From: Gemmatimonadota bacterium
Lineage (GTDB): Bacteria; 4572-55; J002
DNA length: 64,000 bases
Direction: 5' to 3'
NCBI GenBank assembly: GCA_003697105.1
Contig: RFFQ01000003.1
Span: forward strand, 4,235-68,234
Each line of letters begins with the position of its first letter. Within the stretch, counting starts at the first letter, position 1. A program made the translations under genes and the position numbers. Shown here one piece after another: positions 12,448 through 28,363 of the stretch. The notes beneath the pieces were generated by a model. It saw only the letters and a program-made list of their open reading frames with translations. It had not been told where the DNA came from and searched no databases.

Positions 12448-15400
12448 CTAGGTTACATCATGTTGAGAATGTTGAGAGATATTGAAATGAAATGTTGTCT
12501 CTTTAATCCAGCAATAGAGCGTGGGCACTACAAAGATGGTAATCACCACGACTAACATCCCACCAAATGTCGGGATTGCCATTGGCACCATGATGTCGGA
12601 CCCACGTCCGGTGGAGGTCAACACGGGCAACAGGGCGAGCACGGTTGTTGCCACGGTCATCAGTGCCGGGCGCACCCGGCGTTGGCCCGCTTCAATGGTG
12701 GCTTCCCGAATCGCATCGATGGATGCCGGAACGCGTTTGGCAAACGTCTGATCGAGATATGTAGCGATAATCACCCCATCGTCACTGGCAATACCAAACA
12801 ATGCCAAGAAACCAACCCACACCGCGACACTTAAATTGATCGGCTCAATCTGGAAAAGCTGGCGAAAGTCGATCCCAAAGAAGGAAAAATCCAAAAACCA
12901 GGACTGACCATACAGCCAAAGCAAAATAAACCCTCCAGACCACGCCACCAAAATCCCGGAGAAGACGAGGGCGGTCGTGGAAATCGACTTAAATTGAAAA
13001 TAGAGAATCAAAAAGATGATAAATAGCGCCACCGGTAGAATAACGGCCAGTTTTTTCTGTGCCCGAATCTGGTTTTCGTAACTACCGGCAAAGCGATAGC
13101 TCACACCGGCGGGTATCTCAAATTCGCCGCTTTCAATCTTCGCTTGCAGATAGGCTTGTGCCTGTTCGACCACATCGACTTCCGCAAACCCCGGCTTTTT
13201 ATCAAACGTGACATATCCGACTAAAAACGTATCTTCACTTTTGATCACCTGTGGACCCCGGACATATTGGATCTCTGCCAGTTGCCCCAGGGGAATCTGA
13301 GTACCTCCCACGGCGGCCACTAAAATGTCTTTCAGGTCTTCAATGTCGTCCCGCAATTCGCGGAGGTATCGAACCCGCACGGGATAGCGTTCGCGTCCTT
13401 CGACCGTCATACTGACCGGCTTGCCGCCAATAGCGGTCTCAATCACATCCTGAACCTGTTTGACATGGATACCGTACCGGGCGATTTTATCCCGGTCAAT
13501 ATGAATTTCCAGATACGGCTTACCGACAATCCGGTCTGCATTGACCGCCGCCGGCTCGATGGCGGGCACTTCCCGTAAAAATTGTTCGATCTGCAACGCC
13601 ACGGTTTCAATCGTTTTGAGATCGGGACCCTTGATTTTGACCCCCATCGGCGCTCGCATCCCGCTTTGCAACATAACAATACGGGTGGCAATCGGTTGTA
13701 ATTTAGGGGCTGAGGTCGTGCCGGGGATTTCCCCCGCCTTGACAATCTCATCCCAGATATCATCCGGGGATTGGATGCCCGTCCAGGCGCTCCGTCCCGG
13801 ATTCAGCGCGGGGTCTAGGGCCGGGCGCCATAACCGGAACGGCTGACCGTGTTCATCGGGGATTAACCGATTCTTTTCATCGCGCAGATACGTTCCCCGC
13901 ACTCGATATGGCTCACCGTCAGGGGCAAGTAAGGGCGTACCAGACACATCCCGAAAATAATCATTTTTAGTCCGGTCATATTTAAATCGCACCCGCCGCC
14001 CGTGCTCATCTCGTAAATATTCCGGTTTGTAGTTAATGATCGTCTCGATCATGGAGATCGGGGCGGGGTCAAGCGGAGTTTCTGCCCGGCCGAGTTTCCC
14101 CACCGCCTGTTCCACTTCCGGGATGGCATAAAACGCCCGGTCCTGGAGTTGTATCACGTCAAGTACCTCACCGATGGAAGCGTGCGGCATCGTGGTCGGC
14201 ATGTACAAAAACGAGCCTTCATCAAGCGGCGGCATAAACTCCTTACCCAGTCCCGGAAATTGGTGCAACACCACAGAAACCGGCTTCCAGCGCTTGACCG
14301 GCTGGGGCAACCAGCCAAACAGAGCATCAAAACCCAACCAGATCAGCCCTCCAAATAACACAATCAGCGCCGGAAGGCTCAAAAAAAGAATCTTATGGTG
14401 CAAACACCACCGTAAAATGGAGGGATACGCCCGTTGAAAAAGCAGAAAAAAGGTCAGAAAGCCGCCGAGGATCATCCCCACAAAAAGAGTGTTCCACAGC
14501 AAACCGCGTTCAACCCCCAAAGGTAGCCAGTGCCGGGTGAGTAAAATCAGAACTACCAAAACCACCAGATAATGGGTTAAGTAAGGTGACCATTTATACA
14601 GGTAAGAAAGCCACTTTTGGCGGGGTTGAGCGACAGGGCGGACGTCTTGAATAAAACCATTGATACCCATCAAGATCACCAACAACCCGATCCACAGATT
14701 CACCATAACGGCTAGGAAACATCCAAGCACTCCAATCAAACTATAGAACAGCCGCCGGACGTAAGCGCTACGCACCTTACCGGTAAATAACAGTTGCGCA
14801 AATGGCGGAATGATGGTCAACGCCACGATGATGGAGGCAAAAAGCGCAAACGTTTTGGTAAATGCCAGCGGCTTAAATAGCTTTCCTTCCGCCCCGATCA
14901 TGGTAAAGACCGGCAAAAAGCTGACAATAGTCGTCGAAACAGCCGTGAGTACCGCCGAACCAACCTCCGTTGATGCCCGGTAGATAACCTCCAGACGCGG
15001 TTCGTCGGGATCGGCTTCATCCAAGTGTTTGAGGATATTCTCACAAATGACAATCCCCATATCGACCATCGTCCCGATGGCAATCGCAATCCCGGACAGC
15101 GCAACAATGTTGGCATCGACTCCCGCATAGCGCATGGCAATGAAGCACATCAGCACGGCTAACGGGAGCAATCCGGAGATCAATATTGAACTACGTAAGT
15201 GCATCACCATCAGAATAACCACGATGATCGTAACCAGAATTTCGTCAGTGAGGGCACTTTCTAACGTGCCGAGGGTCTCATAGATCAAACCGGTACGATC
15301 ATAAAACGGGACAATGGTGACTTGGCTTACGGTACCATCAGCAAGTGTTTTTTTCGGTAAGCCGGGGGCGATTTCCGCAATTTTTTGCTTCACATTCTGG

Positions 15401-16362
15401 ATGGCTTCCAAGGGATTTTCGCCGTAACGCACCACGACCACCCCGCCAACGACTTCCGCCCCCTCTTTATCCAGTGCGCCCCGTCGTAGCGCAGGACCCA
15501 AACTGACATGCGCCACATTTTTGACCAGTACCGGCACCCCATCCACAGCTTTGACAACCGCTTTTTCCAGATCGGATAATGCCTTTACAAAACCAATCCC
15601 GCGGATTACATACTCCACTTTATTGATTTCGATGGTGCGAGCGCCGACATCCAAATTTGACATACGTACGGCATTAATCACGTCAGTAAGCGTGATGCCA
15701 TAAGCACGCATGGCATCGGGGTCCACATCAATTTGATACTCCTGCACAAAACCACCAATCGACGCCACTTCACTGACTCCTGCGGCAGATTGCAAGCCAT
15801 ATTTCACGTAAAAATCTTGAATGGTACGCAGTTCGTGCAAATCCCAACCGCCGGTCGGGTTTCCTTGCGGGTCGCGCCCTTCCAAGGTGTACCAAAAAAC
15901 TTGTCCCAGTGCGGTGGCATCCGGACCAAGACCCGGACGAACCTCCGGGGGCAACGTGTTGGGGGGAAGACTGCTCAGTTTCTCTAAAATTCGGGAACGA
16001 GACCAGTAGAACTCCACATCTTCATCAAAAATGACATAAATTGTTGAAAAACCGAACATGGAGTAACTCCGGATCGTCTTCACGCCGGGAATCCCGAGTA
16101 ACGCAACGGTCAACGGATATGTCACTTGATCTTCCATATCCTGCGGCGAACGTCCCATCCATTCCGTAAAGACAATCTGCTGATTTTCACCGATGTCTGG
16201 GATGGCATCTACGGGCACGGGGTCCCGGGGCAACCCCCCCAGTTGCCAATCAAAGGGAGCCGTCATCAATCCCCATCCGACAAAAAGGATGAGGACGAGG
16301 ATAACCACAAATTTATTTTCTAAGCAAAATCGAATCAGGGTATCTAAAGGTGATGTTTTCAT
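12448..16362 (-). CDS. Heavy-metal-efflux-type RND permease (CusA/CzcA family), extended 1304-aa form
   Basis: The N-terminus (LIRFCLENKFVVILVLILFVGWGLMTAPFDWQLGGLPRDPVPVDAIPDIGENQQIVFTEWMGRSPQDMEDQVTYPLT) matches HME-RND. It is about 250 aa longer than canonical CusA, with extra hydrophobic helices and a large periplasmic insertion (...YKPEYLRDEHGRRVRFKYDRTKND...). Confidence 0.8.
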   Translation of the reverse strand: MKTSPLDTLIRFCLENKFVVILVLILFVGWGLMTAPFDWQLGGLPRDPVPVDAIPDIGENQQIVFTEWMGRSPQDMEDQVTYPLTVALLGIPGVKTIRSYSMFGFSTIYVIFDEDVEFYWSRSRILEKLSSLPPNTLPPEVRPGLGPDATALGQVFWYTLEGRDPQGNPTGGWDLHELRTIQDFYVKYGLQSAAGVSEVASIGGFVQEYQIDVDPDAMRAYGITLTDVINAVRMSNLDVGARTIEINKVEYVIRGIGFVKALSDLEKAVVKAVDGVPVLVKNVAHVSLGPALRRGALDKEGAEVVGGVVVVRYGENPLEAIQNVKQKIAEIAPGLPKKTLADGTVSQVTIVPFYDRTGLIYETLGTLESALTDEILVTIIVVILMVMHLRSSILISGLLPLAVLMCFIAMRYAGVDANIVALSGIAIAIGTMVDMGIVICENILKHLDEADPDEPRLEVIYRASTEVGSAVLTAVSTTIVSFLPVFTMIGAEGKLFKPLAFTKTFALFASIIVALTIIPPFAQLLFTGKVRSAYVRRLFYSLIGVLGCFLAVMVNLWIGLLVILMGINGFIQDVRPVAQPRQKWLSYLYKWSPYLTHYLVVLVVLILLTRHWLPLGVERGLLWNTLFVGMILGGFLTFFLLFQRAYPSILRWCLHHKILFLSLPALIVLFGGLIWLGFDALFGWLPQPVKRWKPVSVVLHQFPGLGKEFMPPLDEGSFLYMPTTMPHASIGEVLDVIQLQDRAFYAIPEVEQAVGKLGRAETPLDPAPISMIETIINYKPEYLRDEHGRRVRFKYDRTKNDYFRDVSGTPLLAPDGEPYRVRGTYLRDEKNRLIPDEHGQPFRLWRPALDPALNPGRSAWTGIQSPDDIWDEIVKAGEIPGTTSAPKLQPIATRIVMLQSGMRAPMGVKIKGPDLKTIETVALQIEQFLREVPAIEPAAVNADRIVGKPYLEIHIDRDKIARYGIHVKQVQDVIETAIGGKPVSMTVEGRERYPVRVRYLRELRDDIEDLKDILVAAVGGTQIPLGQLAEIQYVRGPQVIKSEDTFLVGYVTFDKKPGFAEVDVVEQAQAYLQAKIESGEFEIPAGVSYRFAGSYENQIRAQKKLAVILPVALFIIFLILYFQFKSISTTALVFSGILVAWSGGFILLWLYGQSWFLDFSFFGIDFRQLFQIEPINLSVAVWVGFLALFGIASDDGVIIATYLDQTFAKRVPASIDAIREATIEAGQRRVRPALMTVATTVLALLPVLTSTGRGSDIMVPMAIPTFGGMLVVVITIFVVPTLYCWIKETTFHFNISQHSQHDVT

Positions 16363-16510: not shown

Positions 16511-18712
16511 TTAGCGTAGCAGGATCAACGGCTGCTGATCGACCTGGTCGTCCACCTGAAGTTGCAACAGATAGAAGCCGCTCTTCACGGGCATTCCCTG
16601 TGAGTCAATCCCTCGCCAAATCAGGGAATAACGCCCTGCGGACTGGTGATACCGAAAAGATCGCCATACCAAGCGACCCGTAGCATCATATATGTTAAGA
16701 TACACACTTGCTGAGGTAGTGAGATCATAACAAATGGAGGTATGGGGATTGAAAGGGTTCGGGTAACTTGGAAGCAACCGGAATCTTGCCGGAGTCCCGA
16801 TGTTAGCCGGTGCCGGGTTAAGAGCAACCATCTCATCTTCAAACTGAAGAACCCGCAAGCCCGTCCCATAATTTCCAACCGTGACATAATCCCCGGAAAC
16901 AGAAACTCCCACCAATTGACCCGGCGTATTAAAAAAGCCGGCTTCTTCAATGTGGAAGGGGTCACTCACATCAAAAACAACAAGCCCATCCCAATTGCAG
17001 GCGGCATAGGCAAAATCCCCCACAACATCCACCTGCCAGACATAATCTTCAACCAGATGGTGTCCCAATTCCACCGGTTCTTGATCCTGTTGAACATCGT
17101 AAATACGCAACCCCCCCTCCATCGCGCAGACATACGCTAAATTGCCCTGCACCTGAACGTCCCGCGCCACGCCGGGCGTTGCGGTTGAGCTAATCTCTTG
17201 TGGCAGGGTCGGATCACTGACATCAATGATCTGCAAATAACCCGTTAGAAAATCCGGTTGAATGACTGCTAGATAAAGGCGGTCACCCGCTACATCTAAC
17301 CCAAAAGCGCGGTGATCCGGTGGTAACGGGTATGACCCAACTTCCTGTGGATTTGCCGGATCGGAAATATCAATCACCCGCACGCCCGCGGCATAAGCGG
17401 CAACATAGGCATAATCACCAGAGACATGAACATCCTTCGCCTGGTCCGGTAGGGCAACAGACCCGATCTCAACCGGAGCCGCGGGATCGCTGACATCAAT
17501 CAGATATAGGGCACTACCGGAATAATCGGGAGAATCTAACGTGAGATACGCCACCTGCCCTTCAACCGTCACACCCCAAGAGAAACCTTCCGCCTCAAAC
17601 TGGCCGGCAAGTCTGGGATGTGTGGGGTCAGCCAAGTCATAAATCAGCAGTCCACCGAAATAATCTGAGACATACGCTATTTGATCCCGGGTAAGCACAT
17701 CCCAGGTATAAATCGGCGGCGTATATTGGGCAACTTCCTGAGGCGGAACGGGTTGAGAGTACCAGAACACCCCATCTTGATAATCGGTAAAAACAAGAAG
17801 GTCATTTGTTACGTCAAGTCCGCGGGGTTCCGGTGTGTTTAACAAACCAACGGGATTAATATTCTGAAAATCTGAGATGTCTAGGAGATGGATTCCATCT
17901 GTTTGGGTTGAAACATAGGCGGCCGTTTCTCCCACCACAAGCTCGGTAGCACCGGGCAGATGGTAAAATCCCACTTCCAGAAGTAATTCTGGATTGGAAA
18001 AATCCACGATAGAGACACCCAATGCCGCATCTGCAATAAATACAAAGGAGTCTCTCACAAAAAGGGAGCGGGGAGTTTCCAATTGGGAAAAAACACCGAT
18101 TTCCACCGGCATCTCAGGTGTAGTGAGGTCAAAAAGGTATAAGAATCCTCCGTCACCATCCGCTGCGAGAACAAAAAGCCGCTCATTTTGGGCGCTCACC
18201 CGCCCGACCGGTTCCGCCAGCGACAGGTAATCCAAAACCTGCGGATTCGCCGGATTGGAAACGTCCAAGATCGCCACATTTTGTTGTTCCACAACATAGG
18301 CGTACTGCCCGGCAACAGCGACATCAAAAATACGAGCTTCTGGATTAAAGGCGCCTACTTCCACCGGATTCAGCGGGTCTGAAACATCCACAATCCGCAA
18401 ACCGGCACTTTGGGCGGCAATATAGAGCAAATGACCCTCTTGAACCATTGCGGTCGCACGCTGATTGAATGCCGGGTCGTGAAAGGTCGCTACCGATCGG
18501 GGTTGAAGCGGGTCGCTGAAATCAATCACCGAGAGTAAAAAATCGTTAGTGACATCCGCCAGCACATACGCATACGGGTCATCTACAATCACGGAATGCG
18601 GTTGTCCGAGGGTGAGTTGCCCGACCGGCGTAACATTCCAACGGTCTTGGGCAACACCCACGGATGCGGCTATCATCAATAAAATCAACATACTAGAAAA
18701 ACAAAAACGCAT
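16511..18712 (-). CDS. Secreted LVIVD-repeat beta-propeller protein with T9SS C-terminal sorting domain
   Basis: Signal peptide MRFCFSSMLILLMIAASVGVAQ. Repeats of the type (Y)AYVA..GLR(I/V)(I/V)D(V/I)SDP.NP occur more than 10 times (LVIVD repeat). The C-terminus (YPNPFNPHTSICYDL ... LNIYDATGRLV ... GFYLLQL) is a T9SS C-terminal domain. It sits between the membrane-fusion and RND genes. Confidence 0.7.
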   Translation of the reverse strand: MRFCFSSMLILLMIAASVGVAQDRWNVTPVGQLTLGQPHSVIVDDPYAYVLADVTNDFLLSVIDFSDPLQPRSVATFHDPAFNQRATAMVQEGHLLYIAAQSAGLRIVDVSDPLNPVEVGAFNPEARIFDVAVAGQYAYVVEQQNVAILDVSNPANPQVLDYLSLAEPVGRVSAQNERLFVLAADGDGGFLYLFDLTTPEMPVEIGVFSQLETPRSLFVRDSFVFIADAALGVSIVDFSNPELLLEVGFYHLPGATELVVGETAAYVSTQTDGIHLLDISDFQNINPVGLLNTPEPRGLDVTNDLLVFTDYQDGVFWYSQPVPPQEVAQYTPPIYTWDVLTRDQIAYVSDYFGGLLIYDLADPTHPRLAGQFEAEGFSWGVTVEGQVAYLTLDSPDYSGSALYLIDVSDPAAPVEIGSVALPDQAKDVHVSGDYAYVAAYAAGVRVIDISDPANPQEVGSYPLPPDHRAFGLDVAGDRLYLAVIQPDFLTGYLQIIDVSDPTLPQEISSTATPGVARDVQVQGNLAYVCAMEGGLRIYDVQQDQEPVELGHHLVEDYVWQVDVVGDFAYAACNWDGLVVFDVSDPFHIEEAGFFNTPGQLVGVSVSGDYVTVGNYGTGLRVLQFEDEMVALNPAPANIGTPARFRLLPSYPNPFNPHTSICYDLTTSASVYLNIYDATGRLVWRSFRYHQSAGRYSLIWRGIDSQGMPVKSGFYLLQLQVDDQVDQQPLILLR

Positions 18713-18777
18713 GGATACCCCCATTAGTAGAAATGAATTTCACTATATACACACTTCGCCTTATCTTAACTTCATAA

Positions 18778-20550
18778 CTAAGGGATTATGGTTTCAATTT
18801 GTTCCCCACAGCGGAGCATCTGCGCACCAAAATAGGGATTTTCCACACCCGGTTTATTTTGCAACCAATCCGCCCCCTGGTCCCCGAATGCCATCGGGCA
18901 ATGAAAAACCAACACCGGTTGAGTATCGCTAATGTCAAATTGTTTCGCCACGGAAATCAGTGTCGTGGAGAGTTTCTCAAACTTCGTACGGGCAATGTCG
19001 ATAACAATGGCACGCGCTATACCGGCGGCGTTATCTTTTAGCACTGGTAAATGGCTCATCCATAGATGGTGGGCGTCATCTTGTAACACGCTCATATCCA
19101 CGTTTTCCAAAGCACGAGTCATGGCGTTTCCAGCGGCTTTGGCGTCCTCTAAATTATCATGACTGAGGGCTTGCTGTATCTCAAAATAGGCGGAAAACAC
19201 GGCATCCAATTGGCGCTGAAACACGGGTGGTACTTCCAGCAATGAGGGGGGAGATGATGCCGCTACCGGAGTCCTCGCCACCGGCATCTCCCCATGCTGA
19301 TGGGCGGACGAGGTTGCACCCCCTTCTGGATTCATCATACTCGGTTTGGCAAGGATTTGCAACGCACTATCAATCTTGAAGTTACCATAAGTGACAACGT
19401 GTTCACCTTCACCGAGTCCTCGCTTGACAATGTAGAAATCACCCACGCGGTCACCCAACACGATTTCGCGCCCTTCAAACACACCTTCTTGTTCGGGGTC
19501 TGCCACATACACAACGGCACGTTTCCCGGTAATCAAGGGTGCTGAAGCGGGGATAACCAGTGGGGGTCTTGTCGTGCTGGGATCGGCTTGGAGGAGGGCC
19601 CGCACGAACATTTCCGGCTTGAGCTTACCCTGTGGATTCGGAACACTCACCCGGAAGTTCACTGTGCGCGTGTGAGGATTTAAAATGGGGTCAATAAATT
19701 CAATATTCCCTGTAAATGACTCACCGGGATAGGCTTCGGTGGTCAATTCTACCGGCAACCCTTCATGAATCCAGGATAAATCGGATTCATACGCCTCCAG
19801 CCAGACCCACAAATTGGAGAGGTCGGCTAAGGTGTAAATTTCGGTGCCCGTGTTGACATACATGCCTTCCACCGCATTCTTATGGGTCACGATACCGCTG
19901 GCGGGCGCTAACACCGTAATATGGTCTTCCGCCGAGCCTCGATCTTGGATGGCTTGAATCTGAGCGGCGGAGAGTCCAAATAGTTCTAGTTTTTTCCGGC
20001 TGGCATTCACCAGCACGTCAGACTTCAACCGTAATGCTTGCAAATACTCTTCTTGCAAGGTCAACAGCTTCGGGCTGTAAACATCCGCCACCGGTTGACC
20101 GTTGTTGACGGTGGTACCGGTAAAATCAATATGTAATTTGTCAATCCGGCCCGGGATCCAGGCGGTGATTTTGGTCAGGCGGGTTTCATCCACATCCAAT
20201 TTACCGACCAGCCGTAGTTCTGCCGACAGCGCGCGGCGTTCCACGGGGGAGGTTTGAATGTGTGCCAATTTGATCGCCGCCGGTGAGAGTTTAATCTGGC
20301 GGGGATTGTCACTTTGATGGTCATCACCGGTGCTTACGGGGATCAGTTCCATGGCACAAATGGGGCACAACCCCGGCTTGGGTTGGCGGATTTGGGGGTG
20401 CATGGAGCAGGTCCATTCCGTGACCGTGGCTGTGGATTCCGGCGCTGATATGGACGGTGCCGGACTCCCACCACCGCGGACGATAAAACCGGTGGTGAAT
20501 GCCAAACCAACAAAAACCAGCAAAATTGCCCATTGTTTGCGGGTAAACAT
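18778..20550 (-). CDS. RND efflux membrane-fusion protein (CusB-like) with N-terminal heavy-metal-binding domain and C-terminal four-helix (DUF3347-like) extension
   Basis: The start was refined to the ATG at 20550, which has a GAGGTGA RBS and begins the transmembrane segment MFTRKQWAILLVFVGLAF. The N-terminal TEWTCSMHPQIRQPKPGLCPICAMEL matches the CusB-type heavy-metal-binding domain. The centre is the biotin-lipoyl/beta-barrel core of a membrane-fusion protein. The C-terminal 150 aa (LLEVPPVFQRQLDAVFSAYFEIQQAL ... AHHLW) is an additional helical metal-binding-like domain. Confidence 0.8.
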   Translation of the reverse strand: MFTRKQWAILLVFVGLAFTTGFIVRGGGSPAPSISAPESTATVTEWTCSMHPQIRQPKPGLCPICAMELIPVSTGDDHQSDNPRQIKLSPAAIKLAHIQTSPVERRALSAELRLVGKLDVDETRLTKITAWIPGRIDKLHIDFTGTTVNNGQPVADVYSPKLLTLQEEYLQALRLKSDVLVNASRKKLELFGLSAAQIQAIQDRGSAEDHITVLAPASGIVTHKNAVEGMYVNTGTEIYTLADLSNLWVWLEAYESDLSWIHEGLPVELTTEAYPGESFTGNIEFIDPILNPHTRTVNFRVSVPNPQGKLKPEMFVRALLQADPSTTRPPLVIPASAPLITGKRAVVYVADPEQEGVFEGREIVLGDRVGDFYIVKRGLGEGEHVVTYGNFKIDSALQILAKPSMMNPEGGATSSAHQHGEMPVARTPVAASSPPSLLEVPPVFQRQLDAVFSAYFEIQQALSHDNLEDAKAAGNAMTRALENVDMSVLQDDAHHLWMSHLPVLKDNAAGIARAIVIDIARTKFEKLSTTLISVAKQFDISDTQPVLVFHCPMAFGDQGADWLQNKPGVENPYFGAQMLRCGEQIETIIP

Positions 20551-20677
20551 GTAAATCACCTCACAGTTAGGAAGTTTAAAATAGGTCACAACGACCCCAA
20601 GAGAAGGCACAGCGAATCCAATACCGTCCTCATAGAGCCGGGCGAATTAAAGAAAATCACCTAAACTGAGAGGGGAA

Positions 20678-21046
20678 TCAAATGATCAGAGGTGGCGAAA
20701 ATCCGGGGAAAATTAGTGTGGGATACGGTATGGCGAGATCAGCGTAAGTGAGGGATTCCCAAGTGACACATTGCAGGGAACTTTCAGGTTGAACACCAAG
20801 GGTAAAAATGGGGGAAAGTACCTGATCGGAGATCGATGGTTGCTCAACCAAGATATGGCAACAGGGAGTTTGCGCCAACCCGTCTGCGGTAGGGCGGGGA
20901 ACGGCACAGCATGAGCTGGCATCACCCCCGGTATACACCTGCACCTCTTGAAAATCTCGCATCAGACAGGTGTGATACTGCAATGGCAGCCCGAGGGTCG
21001 CAACACTGTAAATCAGAATAAAAATAAATGATACAGATTGACGCAT
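20678..21046 (-). CDS. Small secreted Cys-rich protein, paralogue A (HTC / SCC / PCCH motifs)
   Basis: 122 aa with signal peptide MRQSVSFIFILIYSVATLGLP, then YHTCLM ... SSCCAV ... TADG ... TPCCHIL ... SPP. It is homologous to 24401..24775. The ATG has a GGAG RBS. Confidence 0.5.
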   Translation of the reverse strand: MRQSVSFIFILIYSVATLGLPLQYHTCLMRDFQEVQVYTGGDASSCCAVPRPTADGLAQTPCCHILVEQPSISDQVLSPIFTLGVQPESSLQCVTWESLTYADLAIPYPTLIFPGFSPPLII

Positions 21047-21062
21047 GAAAACTCCAAAGAAA

Positions 21063-21083
21063 GCGGCACAACACGTGCGCCGC
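21063..21083 (-). terminator. GC-rich hairpin between the 38-aa basic ORF and Cys-rich gene A (possible attenuator or terminator)
   Basis: GCGGCAC-aacac-GTGCGCCGC stem-loop, followed on the minus strand by UUUCUUUGG. The downstream RBS overlaps, so function is uncertain. Confidence 0.3.
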
Positions 21084-21092
21084 TTGCAGAAC

Positions 21093-21209
21093 CTACTTTT
21101 TCGGTTTATCCAACTGAGCGTTTAATTTCGCGTTCAGTGCGGCTTTTTTTCGCTTGAGATAGGCTTTGCGGCGTTTACGCTTACGGTGTACCCGGTGCGG
21201 TTTACTCAT
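21093..21209 (-). CDS. 38-aa highly basic small protein (candidate ribosome- or nucleic-acid-associated micro-protein)
   Basis: ATG with a strong GGAGGTGA RBS 4 nt upstream. Product is MSKPHRVHRKRKRRKAYLKRKKAALNAKLNAQLDKPKK, about 45% K/R. It is absent from the ORF track, which reports only ORFs of at least 60 aa. Confidence 0.4.
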   Translation of the reverse strand: MSKPHRVHRKRKRRKAYLKRKKAALNAKLNAQLDKPKK

Positions 21210-21302
21210 AGTTCACCTCCTTTCCCGAACATAGAAGATAAGTAATTGACATCACTACAATTAAATAAAATTCTGGAAAAGAGGCAAGGCTTAATTTACC
21301 GC

Positions 21303-21689
21303 TTACAGACGTTCAATAACCTTTTTCAGACGAGATTGCACCTCTTGGGCAACCGTCCCCAGTTGGTCGTTTTGTATGGCTTGCATCGAAGCCAACGGGT
21401 CAACGGCGGCAACCTCAATGCGACCATCATCCAATTGTTGGACAATTACATTACAGGGTAACATGGTGCCAATTTTATCCTCTGCCAACAGTGCCTTATG
21501 GGCAAACGGCGGGTTACAGGCGCCCAAAATACGGTAAGGACGGAAATCCACATCCAGTTTTTTCTTTAAGGTCGCCTTGACATCTATTTCGGTGAGAATA
21601 CCAAATCCTTCTTTTTGGAGTTCTTCCGTAACCCGTTGTATCGCTTGATCAAACGTAGTATCTAAGATCGTGTTAAAGTAGTAACTCAT
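21303..21689 (-). CDS. DUF302-family protein
   Basis: 128 aa: MSYYFNTILDTTFDQAIQRVTEELQKEGFGILTEIDVKATLKKKL ... matches the DUF302 fold pattern. Confidence 0.65.
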   Translation of the reverse strand: MSYYFNTILDTTFDQAIQRVTEELQKEGFGILTEIDVKATLKKKLDVDFRPYRILGACNPPFAHKALLAEDKIGTMLPCNVIVQQLDDGRIEVAAVDPLASMQAIQNDQLGTVAQEVQSRLKKVIERL

Positions 21690-21703
21690 TGATAAACCTC
21701 ATA

Positions 21704-22294
21704 TTAGGCATTAGGGTTTAGAGTAGATTGAAGCCGTGCTTTGATCGGTTCCCACTCAGTAGCTAAGATACGGTAATAGACCGAATCCCGGTAGCGACCA
21801 TCCGGTAAAATCATGTGATGGTGTAAAATCCCTTCTTGTTTCGCACCAAGCCGCTCAATTGCCCGCCGGGAACGGGTATTGAGTACATCCGTTTTGAATT
21901 CGACCCGGATGCAATTCCAGACCTCAAAGGCATGGGTCAGCATCAACCATTTTGCTTCGGTATTCACGGCGGTGCGTTGAAATCGGGGTGTAATCCAGGT
22001 CCAGCCAATTTCGACGCGTCGGTGTTCCGGTGCGATATTACCAAAGCGAGTGGAACCAACAACCGTATTGGTGGCGGTATGCACTGTGACAAAAGGCAAC
22101 GCAACGCCTTGTGCTTGTTGGTCCAATGCCGCACTAACATAAGCCACCATATCTTCAGGGGTGGCGACGATACTCGTCATATACTCCCATATTTCAGGGT
22201 AATTTGCCGCTTGGAACAGTGCCGGAATATGATCGCGCGTCAGTGGCTCTAACCGGACAAACGGCCCTTCCAAAATAACCGGTTCAATCTTCAT
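21704..22294 (-). CDS. GNAT-family N-acetyltransferase (RimJ/RimL-like)
   Basis: 196 aa. The pattern EPLTRDHIPALFQAANYPEIWEYM ... matches GNAT acetyltransferases of the RimL type. Confidence 0.7.
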   Translation of the reverse strand: MKIEPVILEGPFVRLEPLTRDHIPALFQAANYPEIWEYMTSIVATPEDMVAYVSAALDQQAQGVALPFVTVHTATNTVVGSTRFGNIAPEHRRVEIGWTWITPRFQRTAVNTEAKWLMLTHAFEVWNCIRVEFKTDVLNTRSRRAIERLGAKQEGILHHHMILPDGRYRDSVYYRILATEWEPIKARLQSTLNPNA

Positions 22295-22355
22295 AAATAA
22301 AACCGAAATCCTGCCGCCAGGATGATTTTAGCAACCTCCTGGCGGCATAGATTAA

Positions 22356-23063
22356 TTAGTGGTTATGCCCCGAATGGTCTGATTTACTCTTGGTATCATC
22401 CATTTTATGGGCTTCATCATGCTTCATACCCTCTTTTTGGGGTGCTTCGGCAAAGATAATACCTTCTGCTTCCAGTTCCGTCATTCGTTCTTCGGTCATT
22501 TTGGATTCACAACTGGCGCAACAAAAATAGACCCGCTTCCCGTTTATATCTTTATACACTTCCTTGTCGATGGGATTTCCCATGATCGGACACACCGATT
22601 GCAAATGTGCCACGGTAATGCCCTTATCCGCCATTTCTTTGGCATATTTATCAAAATTGGCTTCGACATCTTTGTTGCAGTCGGCACAACAGGTGTAAAT
22701 TCGTTGCCCATCTTTATCCACATACGAATTTTTATCAATTTCATGCCCGCTTATAGGGCAGGTGGTTTGTAATTTGACCCCGGTGTTGCCTTCTTCCGTA
22801 CTCGCCTTTAATTTTTCCATATACTTATCGGGATTTGCTTCAAAGGCTTCTTTACAGTCGGCGCAACAAAAATAGACCTTTTGCCCATTATGCATAACAA
22901 ACACAGAGGGGTCAACCGCTTCACCACCAACGGGGCAAACTTTGTTAGTAACTTCTTCAGCGGGTTTAACGTCAGCTTGTTTTGCCAGAGCAATATCCGC
23001 CGAAAAAAGTGACAGGGAAAACGCGATGATCATCGCGAACAGAAGAAATTGAATTTTACGCAT
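22356..23063 (-). CDS. Periplasmic or lipoprotein metal-binding protein with three tandem YHS/TRASH-like repeats and a His-rich tail
   Basis: The start was refined to the ATG at 23063, which has an AGGAGGA RBS and begins the signal peptide MRKIQFLLFAMIIAFSLSLF. There are three repeats of CP(V/I)xG..(V/I)D ... G(Q/K)R(V/I)YFCCA(D/S)C ... F..(N)PDKY. The tail is HDEAHKMDDTKSKSDHSGHNH. Confidence 0.6.
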   Translation of the reverse strand: MRKIQFLLFAMIIAFSLSLFSADIALAKQADVKPAEEVTNKVCPVGGEAVDPSVFVMHNGQKVYFCCADCKEAFEANPDKYMEKLKASTEEGNTGVKLQTTCPISGHEIDKNSYVDKDGQRIYTCCADCNKDVEANFDKYAKEMADKGITVAHLQSVCPIMGNPIDKEVYKDINGKRVYFCCASCESKMTEERMTELEAEGIIFAEAPQKEGMKHDEAHKMDDTKSKSDHSGHNH

Positions 23064-23079
23064 GGTAAAATCCTCCTTT

Positions 23080-24318
23080 TTAAGGGGTGTGAGAAAGCGG
23101 GCGTCCCACAATTTTTTCCAATGACGCCCAAGTTTGGTAAAATTTAGAAAGTCTCGTAACATATTGTAATTGGTGTTCTCGCAATGCTTGCTCCGCCGAA
23201 ATCAGCGTTAAAAAATCCACCAAATCGGTTTGATAAGCGGCAAGCGCCGCCGAGACCGTTTGCTCCGCTTGGGGTAGAATTTCCGTGCGGTATATCTCGA
23301 TCTGCTCTTGAAGTGCGTTCAGTTCCGCCAGTGTGGCGTTAAATTCAGCCGCTAACCGGTCTTGTATCACCTGTAATTCGGCATCCCGTTGCGCTTTTTT
23401 CTGGTGGGCACTACGGATACGAGCCGGTACATCTCCATTCGCCCACGGCAAAAACGGCAGGGTCATGGAGAATCTGCCCATCCACGCATCGTCCATACCA
23501 TTCATACGGGTGTAGCCCCCCATCAACGTAAAATCGGGTTTTGCCTGTAATTCCGCCAGATGAATATCCACATCACTTTTCTTGATCTGCAATTGAGCGG
23601 CAACCAACAGGGGCTGGGTAGCAATGAGTTTTGGCGTCAGGTAATTGGGCACACGAGGAGATTCCGACGGGACGGTTGTATGCTCCAACGGGGTTTCCAC
23701 CGGACGGTGGAGGAGTTGATTCAATGTTGCCAATGCCGACTGTCGTTGCTGCTCCAACACCAAGCGAGCCGTTTTTAGTGCCGACTGTCGCGTTTGCGCT
23801 TGCAAAACATCCGCTTGTGATGCTTGGTCTGTTACATATTTTGCCGTTGCGACCTCCACAAATTGAGCGGCAAGTTGTTGCTGTTCCGCGTTAATCTCCA
23901 ATGCCCGGTCCACTTGGTACAACTGATAATATGCTTGTTGCACCGCCGCCCGGACTTCCACCCGGCGCGCGTCGATCAGTGCATGTTGAACATTCGCCTT
24001 TGTTTCCGACTGCCGGCGCAGAGTCTTCAATTTACCCGGATAAGGAAACATTTGCTGTAACATAAACATTACTTCGCGGGTGTCGCCTACATCTGCCGGA
24101 TTAAGTGGCGTCCCCCGAAACTCGATCATAAACATCGGATCGGGGAGTTCCGAGACCGCGCGGGATGTCTCCTGCGTTGCCTGGTACGTCGCTTCTACCG
24201 CTTGAATTTGGGGATTTACAGACAACGCCATCTCAATGAGTTCGTCTACGGATTGTCCATACAGCACAGCGGGCGACATCATACTAATAAACACTATAAA
24301 AATCAATAGATTATTCAT
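23080..24318 (-). CDS. Outer-membrane efflux protein (TolC/CzcC/CusC family)
   Basis: 412 aa with a signal peptide and two-fold repeated helical/beta architecture (LNPQIQAVEATYQATQE ... and LQAQTRQSALKTARLVLEQQ...) typical of outer-membrane-factor trimers. Confidence 0.8.
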   Translation of the reverse strand: MNNLLIFIVFISMMSPAVLYGQSVDELIEMALSVNPQIQAVEATYQATQETSRAVSELPDPMFMIEFRGTPLNPADVGDTREVMFMLQQMFPYPGKLKTLRRQSETKANVQHALIDARRVEVRAAVQQAYYQLYQVDRALEINAEQQQLAAQFVEVATAKYVTDQASQADVLQAQTRQSALKTARLVLEQQRQSALATLNQLLHRPVETPLEHTTVPSESPRVPNYLTPKLIATQPLLVAAQLQIKKSDVDIHLAELQAKPDFTLMGGYTRMNGMDDAWMGRFSMTLPFLPWANGDVPARIRSAHQKKAQRDAELQVIQDRLAAEFNATLAELNALQEQIEIYRTEILPQAEQTVSAALAAYQTDLVDFLTLISAEQALREHQLQYVTRLSKFYQTWASLEKIVGRPLSHTP

Positions 24319-24400
24319 GATTCAACCTGTTTTGGAATGAATAGAAATCGAACCGGTTTCAACCAGAATCCGAAAACCAGCCATCAACCAAACGGGTGAA

Positions 24401-24775
24401 TCAATTGAGCAGGGGTAAGTTTACAGGGGGAGAAATATTGAGGAGACGGACATCCATCGGAAGTTCCGGTAAAGTGATCTCCGGCAAATCATGGTCCACA
24501 AGCGCCAGTGTGGGGGAAGCAACTCCCATAAATTCAGCGGGAACGTTAAAGACAAACAGGTCTGTTGCCAGAAGATCGATAGCGAGATGGCAACAGGGTA
24601 CTTTATTCCATCCATCCGCGGTGGTGGCTCCGGCACAACAGGATCGAACGGGGTGTCCCCACATCATTTCTGTATCGATTCGCCCGCTCATATCACAGGT
24701 ATGAACGGCAATCGAGACACCCAATAACGGGGTCAAAAAGACAACTAAGATGAAAAGAGTTACCAGTTTACGCAT
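24401..24775 (-). CDS. Small secreted Cys-rich protein, paralogue B (HTC / SCC / PCCH motifs)
   Basis: 124 aa with signal peptide MRKLVTLFILVVFLTPLLGVSIA, then VHTCDM ... RSCCAG ... TADG ... VPCCHLA ... SPP. It is the first gene of the minus-strand operon that also carries the TolC-like and triple-YHS genes. Confidence 0.5.
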   Translation of the reverse strand: MRKLVTLFILVVFLTPLLGVSIAVHTCDMSGRIDTEMMWGHPVRSCCAGATTADGWNKVPCCHLAIDLLATDLFVFNVPAEFMGVASPTLALVDHDLPEITLPELPMDVRLLNISPPVNLPLLN

Positions 24776-24898: not shown

Positions 24899-25933
24899 TC
24901 AGACCCATCCCTGACTTTTCAGAGTTTCGCCTTCAGCACTAATCACCAAGCCCTCGCAAGAGGGCATTTGATTGATAAAATGGATACCCTGCTCTGGGGA
25001 CATCACAAAGACGGTTGTAGATAATGCATCGGCTTCCATAACCGAACGTGCCCGCACGGAAACACTGGCATTCAACTGCGGGGATTTCCCGCTCACGGGG
25101 TTGACAATATGGTGGAATAGCTTCTCTTGATCGTAATAAATTTCATAATTTCCGGAGGTAGCCACCGCACCGTCATTCATGGCGAAAATTGCCGGGTAGT
25201 GTCCTTTTTTGGCGGGGTCTTCCACGGCAACCGTCCACGCATGAGCACCTTCTTTTTTCCCTTGCGTGATAATATCTCCACCCGCATTGATCAAGAAATG
25301 TTCAACCCCATATCGCCGGAGCACCGCCGCCGCCCGATCCACAATGTAGCCTTTCGCGATGCCATCCAAGGTGATACCCATACCCGGTTTGGCAAACCGA
25401 ATCCCCGATATATCCCAGTGAATGTTACGTGCATCCACACGGGTTAAAACGGATTCCAATTCATCCCCGACCAACTGACCTTTTGTGGACTGAAACAGAT
25501 CGACCAGTGGTAGTACCGTGATGTCAAATAAACCGTGGCTGAGCCGGTGATAGCGCAATGATTCCTGTACCAGATTCATCATTTCAGGTGGGGGATGATC
25601 CAGCGAACCCGTCTTGTTCAGGTGAAAAAGAGGGGAATCACTATCATGCCGACTCAAGATGGCACTCAGCCGGTCAATTTCGGCATACGCCTGGCCCATC
25701 GCCTCTTCTGCCCGTTGAGCAGAGGCATCAAAAAGGGTCATGGAGACGAACGTCCCCATCTGGATTCGATTATCGGCAACATGGTACAGTCTGCGGTTAA
25801 ATTTAAAGAGACCGGTGGTGGCTTGTAACGTTCCACCAGCCGCCATACCAAGTGTTAAAACCCCGCAGGCTTTGAGGAACGTTCGCCGGTCCCATTGGAG
25901 ATGTTGTGGATTACGATTTTCGGTTTCAGTCAT
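24899..25933 (-). CDS. apbE: FAD:protein FMN transferase (ApbE family), Tat-exported
   Basis: The start was refined to the ATG at 25933 (MTETENRNPQHLQWDRRTFLKACGVLTLGMAAGG), which begins a twin-arginine signal. ApbE motifs are present (GIAKGYIVD, LINAGGDI, TSGNYE). It lies downstream of the rnf genes. Confidence 0.8.
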   Translation of the reverse strand: MTETENRNPQHLQWDRRTFLKACGVLTLGMAAGGTLQATTGLFKFNRRLYHVADNRIQMGTFVSMTLFDASAQRAEEAMGQAYAEIDRLSAILSRHDSDSPLFHLNKTGSLDHPPPEMMNLVQESLRYHRLSHGLFDITVLPLVDLFQSTKGQLVGDELESVLTRVDARNIHWDISGIRFAKPGMGITLDGIAKGYIVDRAAAVLRRYGVEHFLINAGGDIITQGKKEGAHAWTVAVEDPAKKGHYPAIFAMNDGAVATSGNYEIYYDQEKLFHHIVNPVSGKSPQLNASVSVRARSVMEADALSTTVFVMSPEQGIHFINQMPSCEGLVISAEGETLKSQGWV

Positions 25934-26129
25934 GTTGAACCCACTCCATTTTCGAGTTATCAGATACCGTATGGTCACATTTGTTCTTAAAAAAACAACT
26001 GAGGCACTCCTTGCGGAATAGCTCGGTGCAGCCCTTTGAGCCTTTGTGCGCCAGCAATTGAACACCCAACCAACTGATCATCAATAGCGGAATCAGGACT
26101 CCCGCCAAAAGGAAATGGTACAGCATCAA
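25926..26129 (-). CDS. NqrM-like small membrane protein (single transmembrane helix plus four-Cys cluster)
   Basis: 67 aa: one transmembrane helix (LLAGVLIPLLMISWLGVQLL) followed by GCTELFRKECLSCFFKNKCDH. Its start overlaps rnfA by 4 nt and its stop lies 2 nt before the apbE start. The position after the rnf genes and before apbE mirrors nqrM in Na+-NQR loci. Confidence 0.45.
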   Translation of the reverse strand: MMLYHFLLAGVLIPLLMISWLGVQLLAHKGSKGCTELFRKECLSCFFKNKCDHTVSDNSKMEWVQHD

Positions 26130-26713
26130 CTACCACCCCCTAAGCCGGCAAAGCCCATGAACGCCATGGAAAGAATACCCCCCACCAACAGCACAATGGC
26201 AATCCCTTTGACAATACTCGGTGTATCTGCCAGATCAAGCTCCTCGCGGATACCCGCCATCAGCACCAGCGCCAAGGAAAACCCCGCCCCAGCACCCAGC
26301 GCAAAGAAGATAGACTGAACAAGATTATACTCCCGGCTGGTCTGAAAGAGTGCCAACCCTAAAATAGAACAGTTGGTGGTAATCAGCGGTAAGAAAATCC
26401 CTAATGCCCGAAAGAGTGCCGGGCTGAATTTTTTGATGAACATTTCCACTAATTGAACAGAGGAGGCAATCACAACGATATACGAAATCAAGCGCAAATA
26501 GGGTGCACCTATCGCTTCCAGCGCAATGTTTATCCCAAAAGCACACAGGGAACTGACCAACATCACAAATGTGACAGCCATGCCCATCCGCGAAGCCGTC
26601 TCAATCTTACCAGAAACACCCAAAAAGGGGCAAATTCCGAGAAAATAACTCAAAACAAAGTTATTGATCAAGGCGGCACTGATAAAAATAAATCCGGGCG
26701 AATCTACACTCAT
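26126..26713 (-). CDS. rnfA: Rnf complex subunit A (RnfA/NqrE family)
   Basis: 195-aa polytopic membrane protein with the characteristic RnfA sequence (NNFVLSYFLGICPFLGVS ... LPLITTNCSILGLAL). Confidence 0.85.
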   Translation of the reverse strand: MSVDSPGFIFISAALINNFVLSYFLGICPFLGVSGKIETASRMGMAVTFVMLVSSLCAFGINIALEAIGAPYLRLISYIVVIASSVQLVEMFIKKFSPALFRALGIFLPLITTNCSILGLALFQTSREYNLVQSIFFALGAGAGFSLALVLMAGIREELDLADTPSIVKGIAIVLLVGGILSMAFMGFAGLGGGS

Positions 26714-27330
26714 ACCTCACTCCTTTTCACGGATCGTTCCCGTAGCCATGCAAACAACATCAACCAGCCCCCGAGTACAAAAAAAGCGCCGCCGGGCAAG
26801 ACCATAATCACCCACGGTTCAAAATTGGCAGGCATGACCCGGAAACCGGCAAAGGTACCGCTACCGAGGACTTCGCGCACCACACCGAGACTCAACACCG
26901 CTATGGTAAATCCGAAACCCATCCCCAGCGCATCCAAAATCGATTTGAATACCCCGTTTTTGGAAGCGAAAGCCTCTGCTCGGCCCAGAATGATGCAATT
27001 TACCACAATCAGCGAAATAAACGCGCCCAACGCTTTATGAACTTCCACACTGATTGCCTGAATGAGGTATTCCACAACGGTCACAAAGGTGGCAATAATC
27101 AAAATATAGGTAGCAATCCGTACCTGTTTGGGGATCAGCTTACGAATCAAGGAAACCGAGATATTGGACATCACCAGTACAAATGTGGTTGCTAAACCCA
27201 TTGCCAGTGCATTAATGACAGAATTTGTCACCGCCAGCACCGGACACATTCCCAGCGCCATCACAAAAACGGGGTTTTCCTTCCAGATACCTTTCAAAAA
27301 AACATCCATGTTTTGCGGTTCTGCGGTCAT
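26710..27330 (-). CDS. rnfE: Rnf complex subunit E (RnfE/NqrD family)
   Basis: 206 aa: ENPVFVMALGMCPVLAVTNSVINALAMGLATTFVL ... VNCIILGRAEAFA matches RnfE. Confidence 0.85.
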   Translation of the reverse strand: MTAEPQNMDVFLKGIWKENPVFVMALGMCPVLAVTNSVINALAMGLATTFVLVMSNISVSLIRKLIPKQVRIATYILIIATFVTVVEYLIQAISVEVHKALGAFISLIVVNCIILGRAEAFASKNGVFKSILDALGMGFGFTIAVLSLGVVREVLGSGTFAGFRVMPANFEPWVIMVLPGGAFFVLGGWLMLFAWLRERSVKRSEV

Positions 27331-27339
27331 TTTTACCTC

Positions 27340-28044
27340 TCAATTTGCGGGGAAATCGGCCGTTTTCAACTGATCCAGATGGCGAGCAATGATGGGAATC
27401 ACTTTCTCAGTACTGCTTCTGAGAATTTTGGAAACCGCGGTAGAGGAAATGGTCGCTCCCGTAATCGTATCAATCTGCCAAGGTTTATTCTTTTCCCCCG
27501 GCTTGACCCACTCAATAGGGTGAGTAATACGACTCTTATCCGGCGTCAGTGATACATCTAATGCTTCAAAATTCTTCAAAAAATGCGGGTCTTTTTCAAT
27601 TTTATCACCCAGACCGGGGGTTTCCTTACTTTCCAGCACTTTCAACCCGATGATCGCCTCTTTTTCCGGTGAATAGCCATATACTAACCGGATCAACTCC
27701 TGAAAGCCTTGCCCGCTGGCGGCTACAGCGACACCCATCAAGTGATGGTCTTCCCCGTAACAGGCATAAATTTGGGCATTCATTGCCGCTTCACCGGTGA
27801 CTTCCACTAAATTGGAATCTTCAATTTTATAGGCGATCTTGTGCGTCGCACCTTTGATCACCTCATTAAAAAGTGCTTTTTCCAGATACACCGCTTTGTT
27901 TTTATTGATAACCGGTAGGGTGAGCTGGTACGTCAGAACGATTAAAATTCCAGCTAAAAAACCGACCCCACCCATAGCGGCAATCATGTGGAAACTACTT
28001 GCCTGCGGAACTTCTGAAATAGGTTGTGTTTGGATTTCTGCCAT
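27340..28044 (-). CDS. rnfG: Rnf complex subunit G (FMN-binding, RnfG/NqrC family)
   Basis: 234 aa with an N-terminal transmembrane anchor and the covalent-FMN attachment motif TITGATISS. Confidence 0.8.
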   Translation of the reverse strand: MAEIQTQPISEVPQASSFHMIAAMGGVGFLAGILIVLTYQLTLPVINKNKAVYLEKALFNEVIKGATHKIAYKIEDSNLVEVTGEAAMNAQIYACYGEDHHLMGVAVAASGQGFQELIRLVYGYSPEKEAIIGLKVLESKETPGLGDKIEKDPHFLKNFEALDVSLTPDKSRITHPIEWVKPGEKNKPWQIDTITGATISSTAVSKILRSSTEKVIPIIARHLDQLKTADFPAN

Positions 28045-28048
28045 GACC

Positions 28049-28363
28049 TCAACCTACCGTTGTCTGTTTGATCAATGCCACATGATACGGGAACAGTTCA
28101 CCCGTCATAATTCCTCGGGTGATTGCGGGGTCTTGGTTCATAAAGGCTTCTGCCGCTTCATCAGTTTCCGCCTCAAAGATCACAATCCCAAACGCATGTT
28201 TTGCCGCATTCAGGGTTCGACCGGCTAAAATTACCGTTCCGGCATCACAATGTGTTTTTAAGTGATTAAAATGATCCGTAATAATTTGATTGTCAGCTTC
28301 CGTCCATGCCGAATCATCATGTAACCGCGGAATCAACGAAAGTTTATACAGATACTGGTTCAT
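28049..28363 (-). CDS. YciI-like (Dabb-fold) small protein inserted in the rnf operon
   Basis: 104 aa: MNQYLYKLSLIPRLHDDSAWTEADNQIITDHFNHLK ... has a YCII-related domain pattern. It overlaps the rnfD stop by 4 nt. Confidence 0.55.
   Translation of the reverse strand: MNQYLYKLSLIPRLHDDSAWTEADNQIITDHFNHLKTHCDAGTVILAGRTLNAAKHAFGIVIFEAETDEAAEAFMNQDPAITRGIMTGELFPYHVALIKQTTVG

Follow-up and report, generated by a model that had tools for sequence, protein, structure and literature searches.

Two small cysteine-rich ORFs heading the parts of a split metal-efflux operon: divergent HYC_CC_PP relatives and candidate metal-sensing leader peptides

Two small cysteine-rich open reading frames (ORFs), A and B, were studied in a stretch of 64,000 nucleotides of contig RFFQ01000003.1 from a Gemmatimonadota bacterium (GCA_003697105.1). 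This whole stretch is called the window. A and B lie on the minus strand in a metal-efflux operon that is split in two, each part retaining its own HYC_CC_PP gene. By sequence comparison they were classed as remote, sub-threshold, divergent members of HYC_CC_PP/DUF8199, a named family that is functionally uncharacterised. Judged by analogy, their features appear to match CutF and CruR, which are cis-acting metal-sensing upstream ORFs (uORFs), better than they match a stoichiometric chaperone. The explanation placed first is that A and B may be cis-acting copper- and silver-sensing leader peptides (regulatory uORFs), one per sub-operon, and its chances of being right or wrong are about equally balanced. 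The two ORFs and the genes that directly follow them are as follows.

24401..24775, minus strand (read 24775..24401): ORF A, 124 aa, first gene of the outer-membrane efflux protein (OEP) sub-operon
20678..21046, minus strand (read 21046..20678): ORF B, 122 aa, first gene of the adaptor/resistance-nodulation-division (RND) sub-operon
23080..24318, minus strand: TolC-like OEP (PF02321), directly downstream of A
18778..20550, minus strand: CusB-like periplasmic adaptor, HMBD at its N-terminus and DUF3347 at its C-terminus, directly downstream of B

ORFs A and B and their relatives

A preliminary description of this DNA had reported a paralogous pair of small cysteine-rich ORFs here, one opening an operon with a TolC-like factor and a triple-YHS gene and the other directly before a CusB-like gene. 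Both ORFs were present on the minus strand at these positions with every motif it had listed, the first being A and the second B. A contained VHTCDM, RSCCA, TTADG, VPCCH and ISPPVNLPLLN. B contained YHTCLM, SSCCA, PTADG, TPCCH and FSPPLII. In A a predicted N-terminal export helix is followed by H25-T-C27-x-M29, C46C47, C61C62-H63, a linker, S-P116-P117 and the tail VNLPLLN before the stop codon. The layout of B is H25-T-C27-x-M29, C46C47, C62C63-H64, a linker and S-P118-P119-LII before the stop. The N-termini start with MRK or MRQ and have a hydrophobic stretch of 15 to 17 residues, with a peak 12-mer hydrophobicity on the Kyte-Doolittle scale of 3.0 in A and 2.5 in B. Candidate cleavage positions of the putative signal sequence lie after G19 or after A24.

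A and B were 32% identical across 68 aa (BLASTP, E 3e-13). The core, taken as residues 20-70 without the N-terminal hydrophobic segment, scored 87 compared to 22.2 ± 4.5 in 2000 shuffles. The C-terminal halves had no similarity beyond shuffles (19 compared to 24.4 ± 4.5). Paralogy thus extends over the first ~70 residues and the few at the very end, and no further. A and B were the only ORFs to pass a six-frame scan of the whole window for a basic N-terminus, a hydrophobic h-region, at least two cysteines and PP near the C-terminus. When the motif register was written as a degenerate DNA pattern, it matched two places in the window, A and B only, with 0 expected.

Neither ORF had a direct match in Pfam or NCBIfam, and the HYC_CC_PP model NF047658 (curated cut-off 28 bits) was not reached even at E <= 1. 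Word-indexed homologue searches with A or B returned the query itself only, and with a 14-sequence profile nine proteins. Back-translated peptide scans of genome contigs gave no match. An A+B profile searched with HMMER against 1.84 billion representatives gave 16 proteins at E <= 1e-3. These included a B-type orthologue, P0004 (E 5.5e-18), and an A-type relative, P0005 (E 5.5e-8). The dN/dS of B against P0004 was ~0.24, indicating that B is truly protein-coding. A database entry identical to B is annotated as a 'hypothetical protein' of a metagenome-assembled genome (MAG) labelled Gemmatimonadetes. The second-best HMMER match, P0003 (1751 aa), is eukaryote-like and consists of ~20 tandem units of ~81 aa, each opening with a signal-like segment. 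It was rejected as a relative because its significance sums 14 weak repeat matches. P0015 (3327 aa), apparently a repeat protein and matching via eight weak stretches, was also not counted. From a hand-made degenerate DNA pattern search came a single new genome locus, L016, along with two metagenome contigs that each carry the known P0007.

The family assignment came from two directions. Four of the 14 aligned sequences matched NF047658, with P0007 above the cut-off at 33.5 bits, and PF26622 (DUF8199) was a precomputed annotation on P0004, P0007, P0014 and P0016. Separately, a tblastn search with the RND permease of the window found full-length orthologues, 51-60% identical, on eight Bacteroidota plasmids, the long form of the permease being common to all. 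On seven of the eight the gene directly upstream of the RND orthologue encoded a small 'hypothetical protein' scoring 41.5-71.9 bits on NF047658. These seven proteins were picked solely by position and not by sequence. In hhalign the window subfamily (A, B, P0004 and P0005) aligned to the seven plasmid proteins at 97.7% probability (E 1.7e-12, 77 columns) and to the first model-positive set at 98.1% probability (E 8e-14). The signal-like helix adds to both scores. The alignment to model-positive members together with the independent synteny route supports A and B as remote HYC_CC_PP members. The preliminary description had guessed at this family and was right as far as a remote relationship goes. 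As to the HMM searches it had proposed, the direct Pfam and NCBIfam searches gave nothing and the profile-profile comparison supplied the link.

A and B share with the main family a size of 120-150 aa, an N-terminal hydrophobic helix ending in an invariant Gly, a hydrophobic tail and the name-giving motifs: HxC after the hydrophobic segment, CC, and PP near the C-terminus. The position directly before CusA-type RND, TolC, HMBD-adaptor or DUF3347 genes is also shared. Several differences make A and B a divergent variant. They fall below the model, the middle residue of HxC is Thr and not Tyr (HTC instead of HYC or HFC), and there is a second full vicinal pair with His (PCCH). The tail after PP is 3-10 residues long compared to 15-17 with the consensus PPLxxxDIxxxxQxFLI. 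The host MAG carries the label Gemmatimonadetes and not Bacteroidota, and there are two copies in a split operon. No paper mentioning HYC_CC_PP or DUF8199 was found in a literature search, and a search for DUF3347 yielded nothing useful.

Model-positive members directly precede CusA-type RND, TolC, adaptor or DUF3347 genes in L015, L019-L024 and L026. The P0022 operon comprises HYC_CC_PP, CusA/CzcA, OEP, HMBD adaptors and DUF3347. What looks like the ancestral operon runs HYC_CC_PP, long CusA-type RND, TolC, (copper P-type ATPase), HMBD adaptor and DUF3347, with multicopper oxidase, SCO, HMA and copper-binding four-helix proteins as frequent neighbours. The association with heavy-metal RND efflux genes, which the preliminary description had thought worth looking for in other genomes, therefore recurs (L015 and seven plasmid operons). 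P0005 is followed by an OEP homologous to that of the window, and the order A-type gene to OEP is also found in L010. Upstream of P0004 lie the DUF302 gene and 38-aa ORF that also precede B. YHS proteins follow P0012. TonB-dependent receptors lie downstream of P0006 (L007 3288-4252) and of a 131-aa protein from a Bacteroidetes MAG (L016 3-2406) which scored 22.1 bits on NF047658.

In Prevotella sp. oral taxon 299 (L025 4469-4822, plus strand) the ORF upstream of the orthologous RND gene had no HYC_CC_PP match. This ORF ends in LRAPPSSALTARV, carrying a RAPP motif like that of CruR.

Conservation, spacing and RNA pairing

The residues invariant in the 14-sequence alignment were G19, C27, C46, C47, C61 and C62, with H25 nearly so and a PP or PPP recurrent near the C-terminus. 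Conservation of the cysteine motifs in homologues, on which the preliminary description had made its proposal depend, was thus complete for all five cysteines within these 14 sequences. Conservation is confined to the N-terminal helix with the G..HxC..CC..CC core, the di- or tri-proline 50-60 residues downstream and the extreme C-terminus. Between B and P0004 identity was 53% in the signal region, 47% in the core, 24% in the linker and 75% in the tail. The flanking DUF302 and 38-aa genes of the two loci were 80-82% identical.

AlphaFold2 (AF2) with the family alignment gave three short strands, with a mean predicted local distance difference test score (pLDDT) of 58 and a predicted template modelling score of 0.31. 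A helix at residues 2-17 had a pLDDT of ~90. The C-terminal half was of low confidence, with pLDDT <50 at residues 72-95 and 107-112, and the linker was predicted to be disordered. A profile search of the PDB found no relative, only chance matches to leucine-rich repeat proteins.

The length of the linker is held constant and its sequence is not. The spacing from the second Cys motif to PP is 54 residues in A and 55 in B, 50-56 in 11 members including these two, and 53-60 in the seven proteins from plasmids. The stop follows PP after 3 residues in B and P0004, 7 in A, 7-10 across A and P0005, and 15-17 in the main family.

A long hairpin was predicted at the junction of each ORF with the gene that follows.

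24315..24408, minus strand: predicted long hairpin closing the 82-nt A-to-OEP intergenic region
20548..20684, minus strand: predicted long hairpin (RNA folding) closing the 127-nt B-to-CusB intergenic region

In the first hairpin the stop codon of A and the UUCACC directly after it pair with GGUUGAAUCAUG, a segment made up of the start codon of OEP and the region upstream of it. In the second, CAU before the stop of B pairs with the AUG of CusB, and CCUC located 5-8 nt past the stop pairs with the GAGG Shine-Dalgarno sequence. The adaptor start used was ATG 20550, the choice of the gene caller, 127 nt from B. The alternative GTG 20610, 67 nt from B, showed no pairing (z = +1.0) and was rejected.

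Pairing was measured as the ensemble-expected number of base pairs between stop-proximal and start-proximal windows at 13 family and 15 control junctions. A had 13.6 expected base pairs and B 12.3. The metagenomic relatives had 11.6, 8.8, 7.2 and 2.2, and the plasmid operons 11.8, 13.1, 9.3, 12.2, 8.3, 2.8 and 1.1. The 15 control junctions, all in the window, had a median of 1.7 and a maximum of 13.0. The stop region paired with the next start region at 10 of the 13 family junctions compared to one of the 15 controls (Mann-Whitney one-sided p = 0.001). At the P0006 junction the last codons of the small ORF form a perfect 10-bp pairing with the start region of the TonB-dependent receptor. Stop/start pairing was absent from the P0007-to-RND and P0022-to-RND junctions and from those of L022 and L026. 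The stem sequences differ among loci, so it is the arrangement that is conserved and not the sequence.

Proposed metal sensing in cis and the alternatives

CutF of Rhodobacter capsulatus (DUF2946) is a copper-sensing nascent exported protein which controls the translation of cutO. Copper on the periplasmically exposed cysteines of the nascent chain lengthens a pause at a C-terminal PPP that precedes RL and the stop, and without copper the pause is relieved by disulfide formation and pulling by the translocon (PMC9973294; 10.1101/2025.02.05.636593). Ozturk et al. described CutF-like proteins as having <150 aa, a signal peptide, a Cys/His motif, PP in the last 15 residues, a same-strand neighbour and a short spacer. 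Their set lies mostly upstream of OEP, TonB-like, ACR_tran and HlyD_D23 genes and has a large Bacteroidota share (PMC9973294). Both fit this description: A has 124 aa, with PP at 8-9 residues from its end and a spacer of 82 nt before OEP, and B has 122 aa, with PP at 4-5 residues from its end and a spacer of 127 nt before the adaptor ATG. The N-terminus of each is a putative export signal. Like CutF, A and B are small (predicted) exported proteins with several cysteines in the mature N-terminal part and a proline repeat near the stop. Further likenesses are an unstable or unfolded protein, a stem-loop in a short intergenic region masking the next start, and a family found before OEP, ACR_tran and HlyD genes. 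CutF differs in having CxxxC plus two cysteines compared to HxC, CC and CC, PPP compared to SPP, and a multicopper oxidase as the downstream gene. The CutF mechanism, like that of CruR described next, has been shown experimentally, and A and B are likened to it by their motifs, spacing and predicted RNA pairing.

The second parallel is CruR (Bp2923) of Bordetella pertussis, also DUF2946. It is a copper-responsive uORF that controls a TonB-dependent transporter via arrest and Rho termination (PMC9426467). It has CXXC and, three residues from the end, RAPP, and the spacing between these (45 ± 2) is conserved and needed for regulation (PMC9426467). A and B share with CruR the first position in the operon, a Cys motif, a conserved Cys-to-PP spacing and, in B, an xxPP three residues before the end. 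In the family of CruR, too, genes are found upstream of TonB-dependent receptors, as is the case for P0006 and the L016 member. The differences are the CXXC and RAPP motifs, a spacing of 45 compared to 50-60 residues, a signal peptide that is dispensable, a long C-rich intergenic region with Rho-dependent termination, and the down-regulation of an uptake system. A third small protein comes from an efflux operon. CzcI of Cupriavidus metallidurans pMOL30 is exported, is encoded upstream of czcCBA and has been suggested to be a metal-sensing regulator. It resembles A and B as a small exported Cys/His protein encoded 75 nt before the outer-membrane factor gene of a heavy-metal efflux (HME) RND operon, and differs in lacking a PP motif and in its Cys motif, CGVCH.

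On the leader-peptide reading we infer export, metal binding, stalling and regulation by A and B as follows. The very hydrophobic N-terminus would direct the nascent chain to the Sec translocon. The HxC / CC / CC core would reach the periplasmic side when the ribosome is ~50-60 codons further on, at the conserved proline pair near the stop. With no metal the cysteines would oxidise or fold, the chain would be pulled out and translation would end fast. The intergenic hairpin would then re-form and hide the next start region, that of OEP after A and of the adaptor after B. Cu(I) or Ag(I), possibly also Hg(II), on the thiolates would slow release, and the ribosome would linger at PP and the stop. 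A lingering ribosome would keep the 5' arm of the hairpin melted and the downstream start site exposed. A cis sensor must directly precede its target, so the split of an ancestral single operon would call for two copies. No two-component or CueR-type regulator adjoins the efflux operons, either in the window or on the plasmids. The leader-peptide reading was ranked first because it alone covers the length-conserved linker, the conserved PP and tail, the masked starts, one copy per sub-operon, the efflux and uptake contexts and the missing adjacent regulators.

Several results weigh against A and B being sensors of this kind. PF11162 (DUF2946) matches none of 21 proteins (A and B with relatives, and the plasmid members) at E <= 1-10, and homology to CzcI was rejected (hhalign probability 3.7%, with the signal peptide alone aligning). 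As a context for stalling, the SPP of A and B is weaker than CutF's PPP, and pauses there would ordinarily be resolved by EF-P. Five invariant cysteines exceed the needs of a minimal sensor. The PP-to-stop distance ranges from 3 to 21 residues over the family, so one fixed geometry cannot fit all members, and PP is absent from P0008, P0013 and the L016 protein. A duplex-energy test was significant for A and B (z = -3.5 to -3.7 for B) and equally strong in three of 13 control junctions, and the ensemble measure took its place. In the ensemble measure the Trx-to-MerTP control junction, with 13.0 expected base pairs, is as strong as A and B. Taken singly, the hairpins have ordinary folding energies (z = -1.1 for A, -1.9 for B). 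Pairing of this kind is also expected from plain translational coupling of a co-expressed chaperone.

A chaperone is what the preliminary description had proposed. A and B would then be exported or membrane-tethered thiolate metallochaperones or buffers for Cu(I), Ag(I) or Hg(II), CusF replacements from which either the HMBD/DUF3347 adaptor or the CusA-type pump would receive the metal. The Cys/His core is likely to bind metal whether A and B are sensors or chaperones. What separates the two is action in cis during the protein's own synthesis as opposed to action in trans as a stable product. Five invariant cysteines and a near-invariant His in a short core beside an export helix would suit a chaperone, as would the recurrence of the family at the head of copper-type efflux operons and the Cys-based nature of all the neighbouring accessory domains (HMBD, DUF3347 and YHS/TRASH). 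The mercury module begins 0.2 kb past the RND gene, and vicinal Cys pairs handle Hg(II) in MerT, MerF and the C-terminus of MerA. The Pfam and NCBIfam scans found no CusF homologue in the cluster. CusF and SilF are likewise small exported accessory proteins encoded within Cus-type operons. CusF is a folded OB-type barrel with Met, His and Trp ligands and contains no cysteines. A and B had no Pfam match to the CusF type (PF11604), no PDB relative and no confident AF2 fold. Beyond the three-strand sheet there is nothing confidently folded, and no chaperone family was matched. About half of the protein is a fast-evolving linker conserved in length and not in sequence, and PP and the C-terminal tail are better conserved than a passive chaperone tail should be. 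The stop/start pairing is compatible with coupled, stoichiometric translation. A protein that feeds the pump nevertheless fits poorly with this pairing taken together with the fixed linker length, the conserved PP and tail, and relatives that also precede TonB-dependent receptors and YHS proteins. It leaves unexplained why two copies each stand before a different pump component. This explanation ranks second and is on the whole unlikely.

The cysteines might also be structural. The N-terminal stretch could remain as a signal anchor (~21 residues, L4 to V24 in A, with G19 invariant), making A and B small membrane-anchored pump subunits, AcrZ-like in principle, or disulfide-stapled envelope proteins, which would neither sense metal nor carry it. 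Four of the five cysteines are in two pairs that could form two cross-strand disulfides in the oxidising periplasm, and linkage to the pump genes is tight. The conserved PP, the Cys-to-PP spacing, the occurrence before TonB-dependent receptors, the odd number of invariant cysteines with adjacent His and Met, and the disordered, unconserved C-terminal half would all be left unexplained, and we consider such a role improbable. The preliminary description had also raised a metallophore-like peptide. On that view A and B would give rise, as ribosomally made precursors, to a Cys-derived metallophore (methanobactin- or chalkophore-like) that is exported and then re-imported or used in detoxification. 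They are small, Cys-rich and fast-evolving outside the core, and some relatives adjoin TonB-dependent receptors. Maturation genes for a metallophore or other ribosomally synthesised and post-translationally modified peptide (RiPP), namely MbnB/C-like, radical SAM, YcaO and peptidase/export ABC genes, were absent from the window cluster and the related loci inspected. A Sec-type N-terminus is atypical for RiPP leaders, and the conserved motifs span 40 residues and not a short core peptide. We give this proposal very little credence.

If A and B are sensing leader peptides, a testable function follows for a named, unstudied family whose genes come first in copper/silver efflux operons of many plasmids and chromosomes of Bacteroidota, gut Parabacteroides among them. 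Transmembrane metal sensing by an exported nascent chain, as in CutF and CruR, would be extended to a family of unrelated sequence with different thiol chemistry. It would also explain how operons without an adjacent two-component or MerR/CueR-type regulator sense periplasmic metal, and the split operon with its two sensors would offer a natural test of action in cis. Since the family already has a name and the class of mechanism is published, the finding is not categorically new. The link from HYC_CC_PP to CutF/CruR-type control, which we draw from the spacing and RNA evidence, was not found in the literature. More broadly, HYC_CC_PP may be a second, evolutionarily independent class of metal-sensing arrest leader peptides, specific to Bacteroidota and Gemmatimonadota. 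In these the choice of two vicinal Cys pairs, exposed to the periplasm, between disulfide and soft metal would be relayed by a ~55-residue ruler to a proline/termination pause, unmasking efflux or TonB-receptor starts. The window would then hold two instances of this design, a sensor for the outer-membrane factor and another for the adaptor/RND module. This wider proposal is plausible, with the balance tilting somewhat against it. Were A and B chaperones instead, they would be a Cys-based replacement for CusF, a less surprising outcome.

The surrounding gene cluster

Along the direction of transcription the cluster runs Rnf genes, ApbE, A, TolC-like OEP, triple YHS/TRASH, GNAT, DUF302 and a 38-aa basic ORF, and continues with B, CusB-like adaptor, LVIVD propeller, CusA/CzcA RND, MerR, thioredoxin-like, MerTP and MerA. 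The features other than those listed above are as follows.

9232-12220, minus strand: mercury module of MerR, a Thioredoxin_3 protein, a MerT-MerP fusion and MerA (575 bits on TIGR02053)
12448..16362, minus strand: CusA/CzcA-family RND permease, 1304 aa (TIGR00914, 779 bits)
16511-18724, minus strand: LVIVD-repeat beta-propeller, 733-737 aa, with a C-terminal FlgD_ig / Por_Secre_tail sorting domain, between the adaptor and RND genes
21066..21078, minus strand: hairpin and T-run resembling a terminator, located between B and the 38-aa ORF, with a counterpart at the same position in the orthologous locus L009
21093-21209, minus strand: highly basic 38-aa ORF, MSKPHRVHRKRKRRKAYLKRKKAALNAKLNAQLDKPKK, between B and the DUF302 gene, its Shine-Dalgarno sequence being GGAGG
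22356..23063, minus strand: exported protein with three YHS/TRASH-type Cys motifs (domain scan)
25926-30787, minus strand: Rnf-type operon (RnfC, D, G, E, A), with a YCII-family gene between rnfD and rnfG

The motif in transmembrane helix 4 (TM4) of the RND permease is AIGTMVDMGIVICEN, compared to LDFGIIIDGAVVIVEN in CzcA, and the DFG..DGA acids of CzcA are not present. In HME-RND permeases the TM4 motif is related by rule to the substrate. Together with the copper genes of the orthologous operons it points to Cu(I)/Ag(I) as the substrate. The permease is ~240 aa longer than CzcA, with insertions near residues 558-607, 666-703 and 827-860. With a MerR of its own, the mercury module appears to be a unit distinct from the efflux operons.

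The adaptor (18778-20610 with the GTG start) is fused from three parts, namely HMBD, a CusB-like core and DUF3347. DUF3347 has a downstream gene to itself in L015 and in the plasmid operons of Bacteroidota. The LVIVD propeller gene is absent from the orthologous plasmid operons.

A promoter and terminator consensus scan as a whole showed no enrichment over shuffles. The 38-aa ORF had no NCBIfam match. It is kept at the same position in L009 with 82% amino acid identity and a dN/dS of ~0.06, and a hairpin with a T-run lies behind both copies. The triple YHS/TRASH gene has two candidate starts. Its longest ORF has 268 aa (to 23162) and overlaps the 3' end of OEP by 83 nt, and gene callers pick an internal ATG at 23063, giving 235 aa. 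A 66-aa ORF and ApbE lie directly upstream of A.

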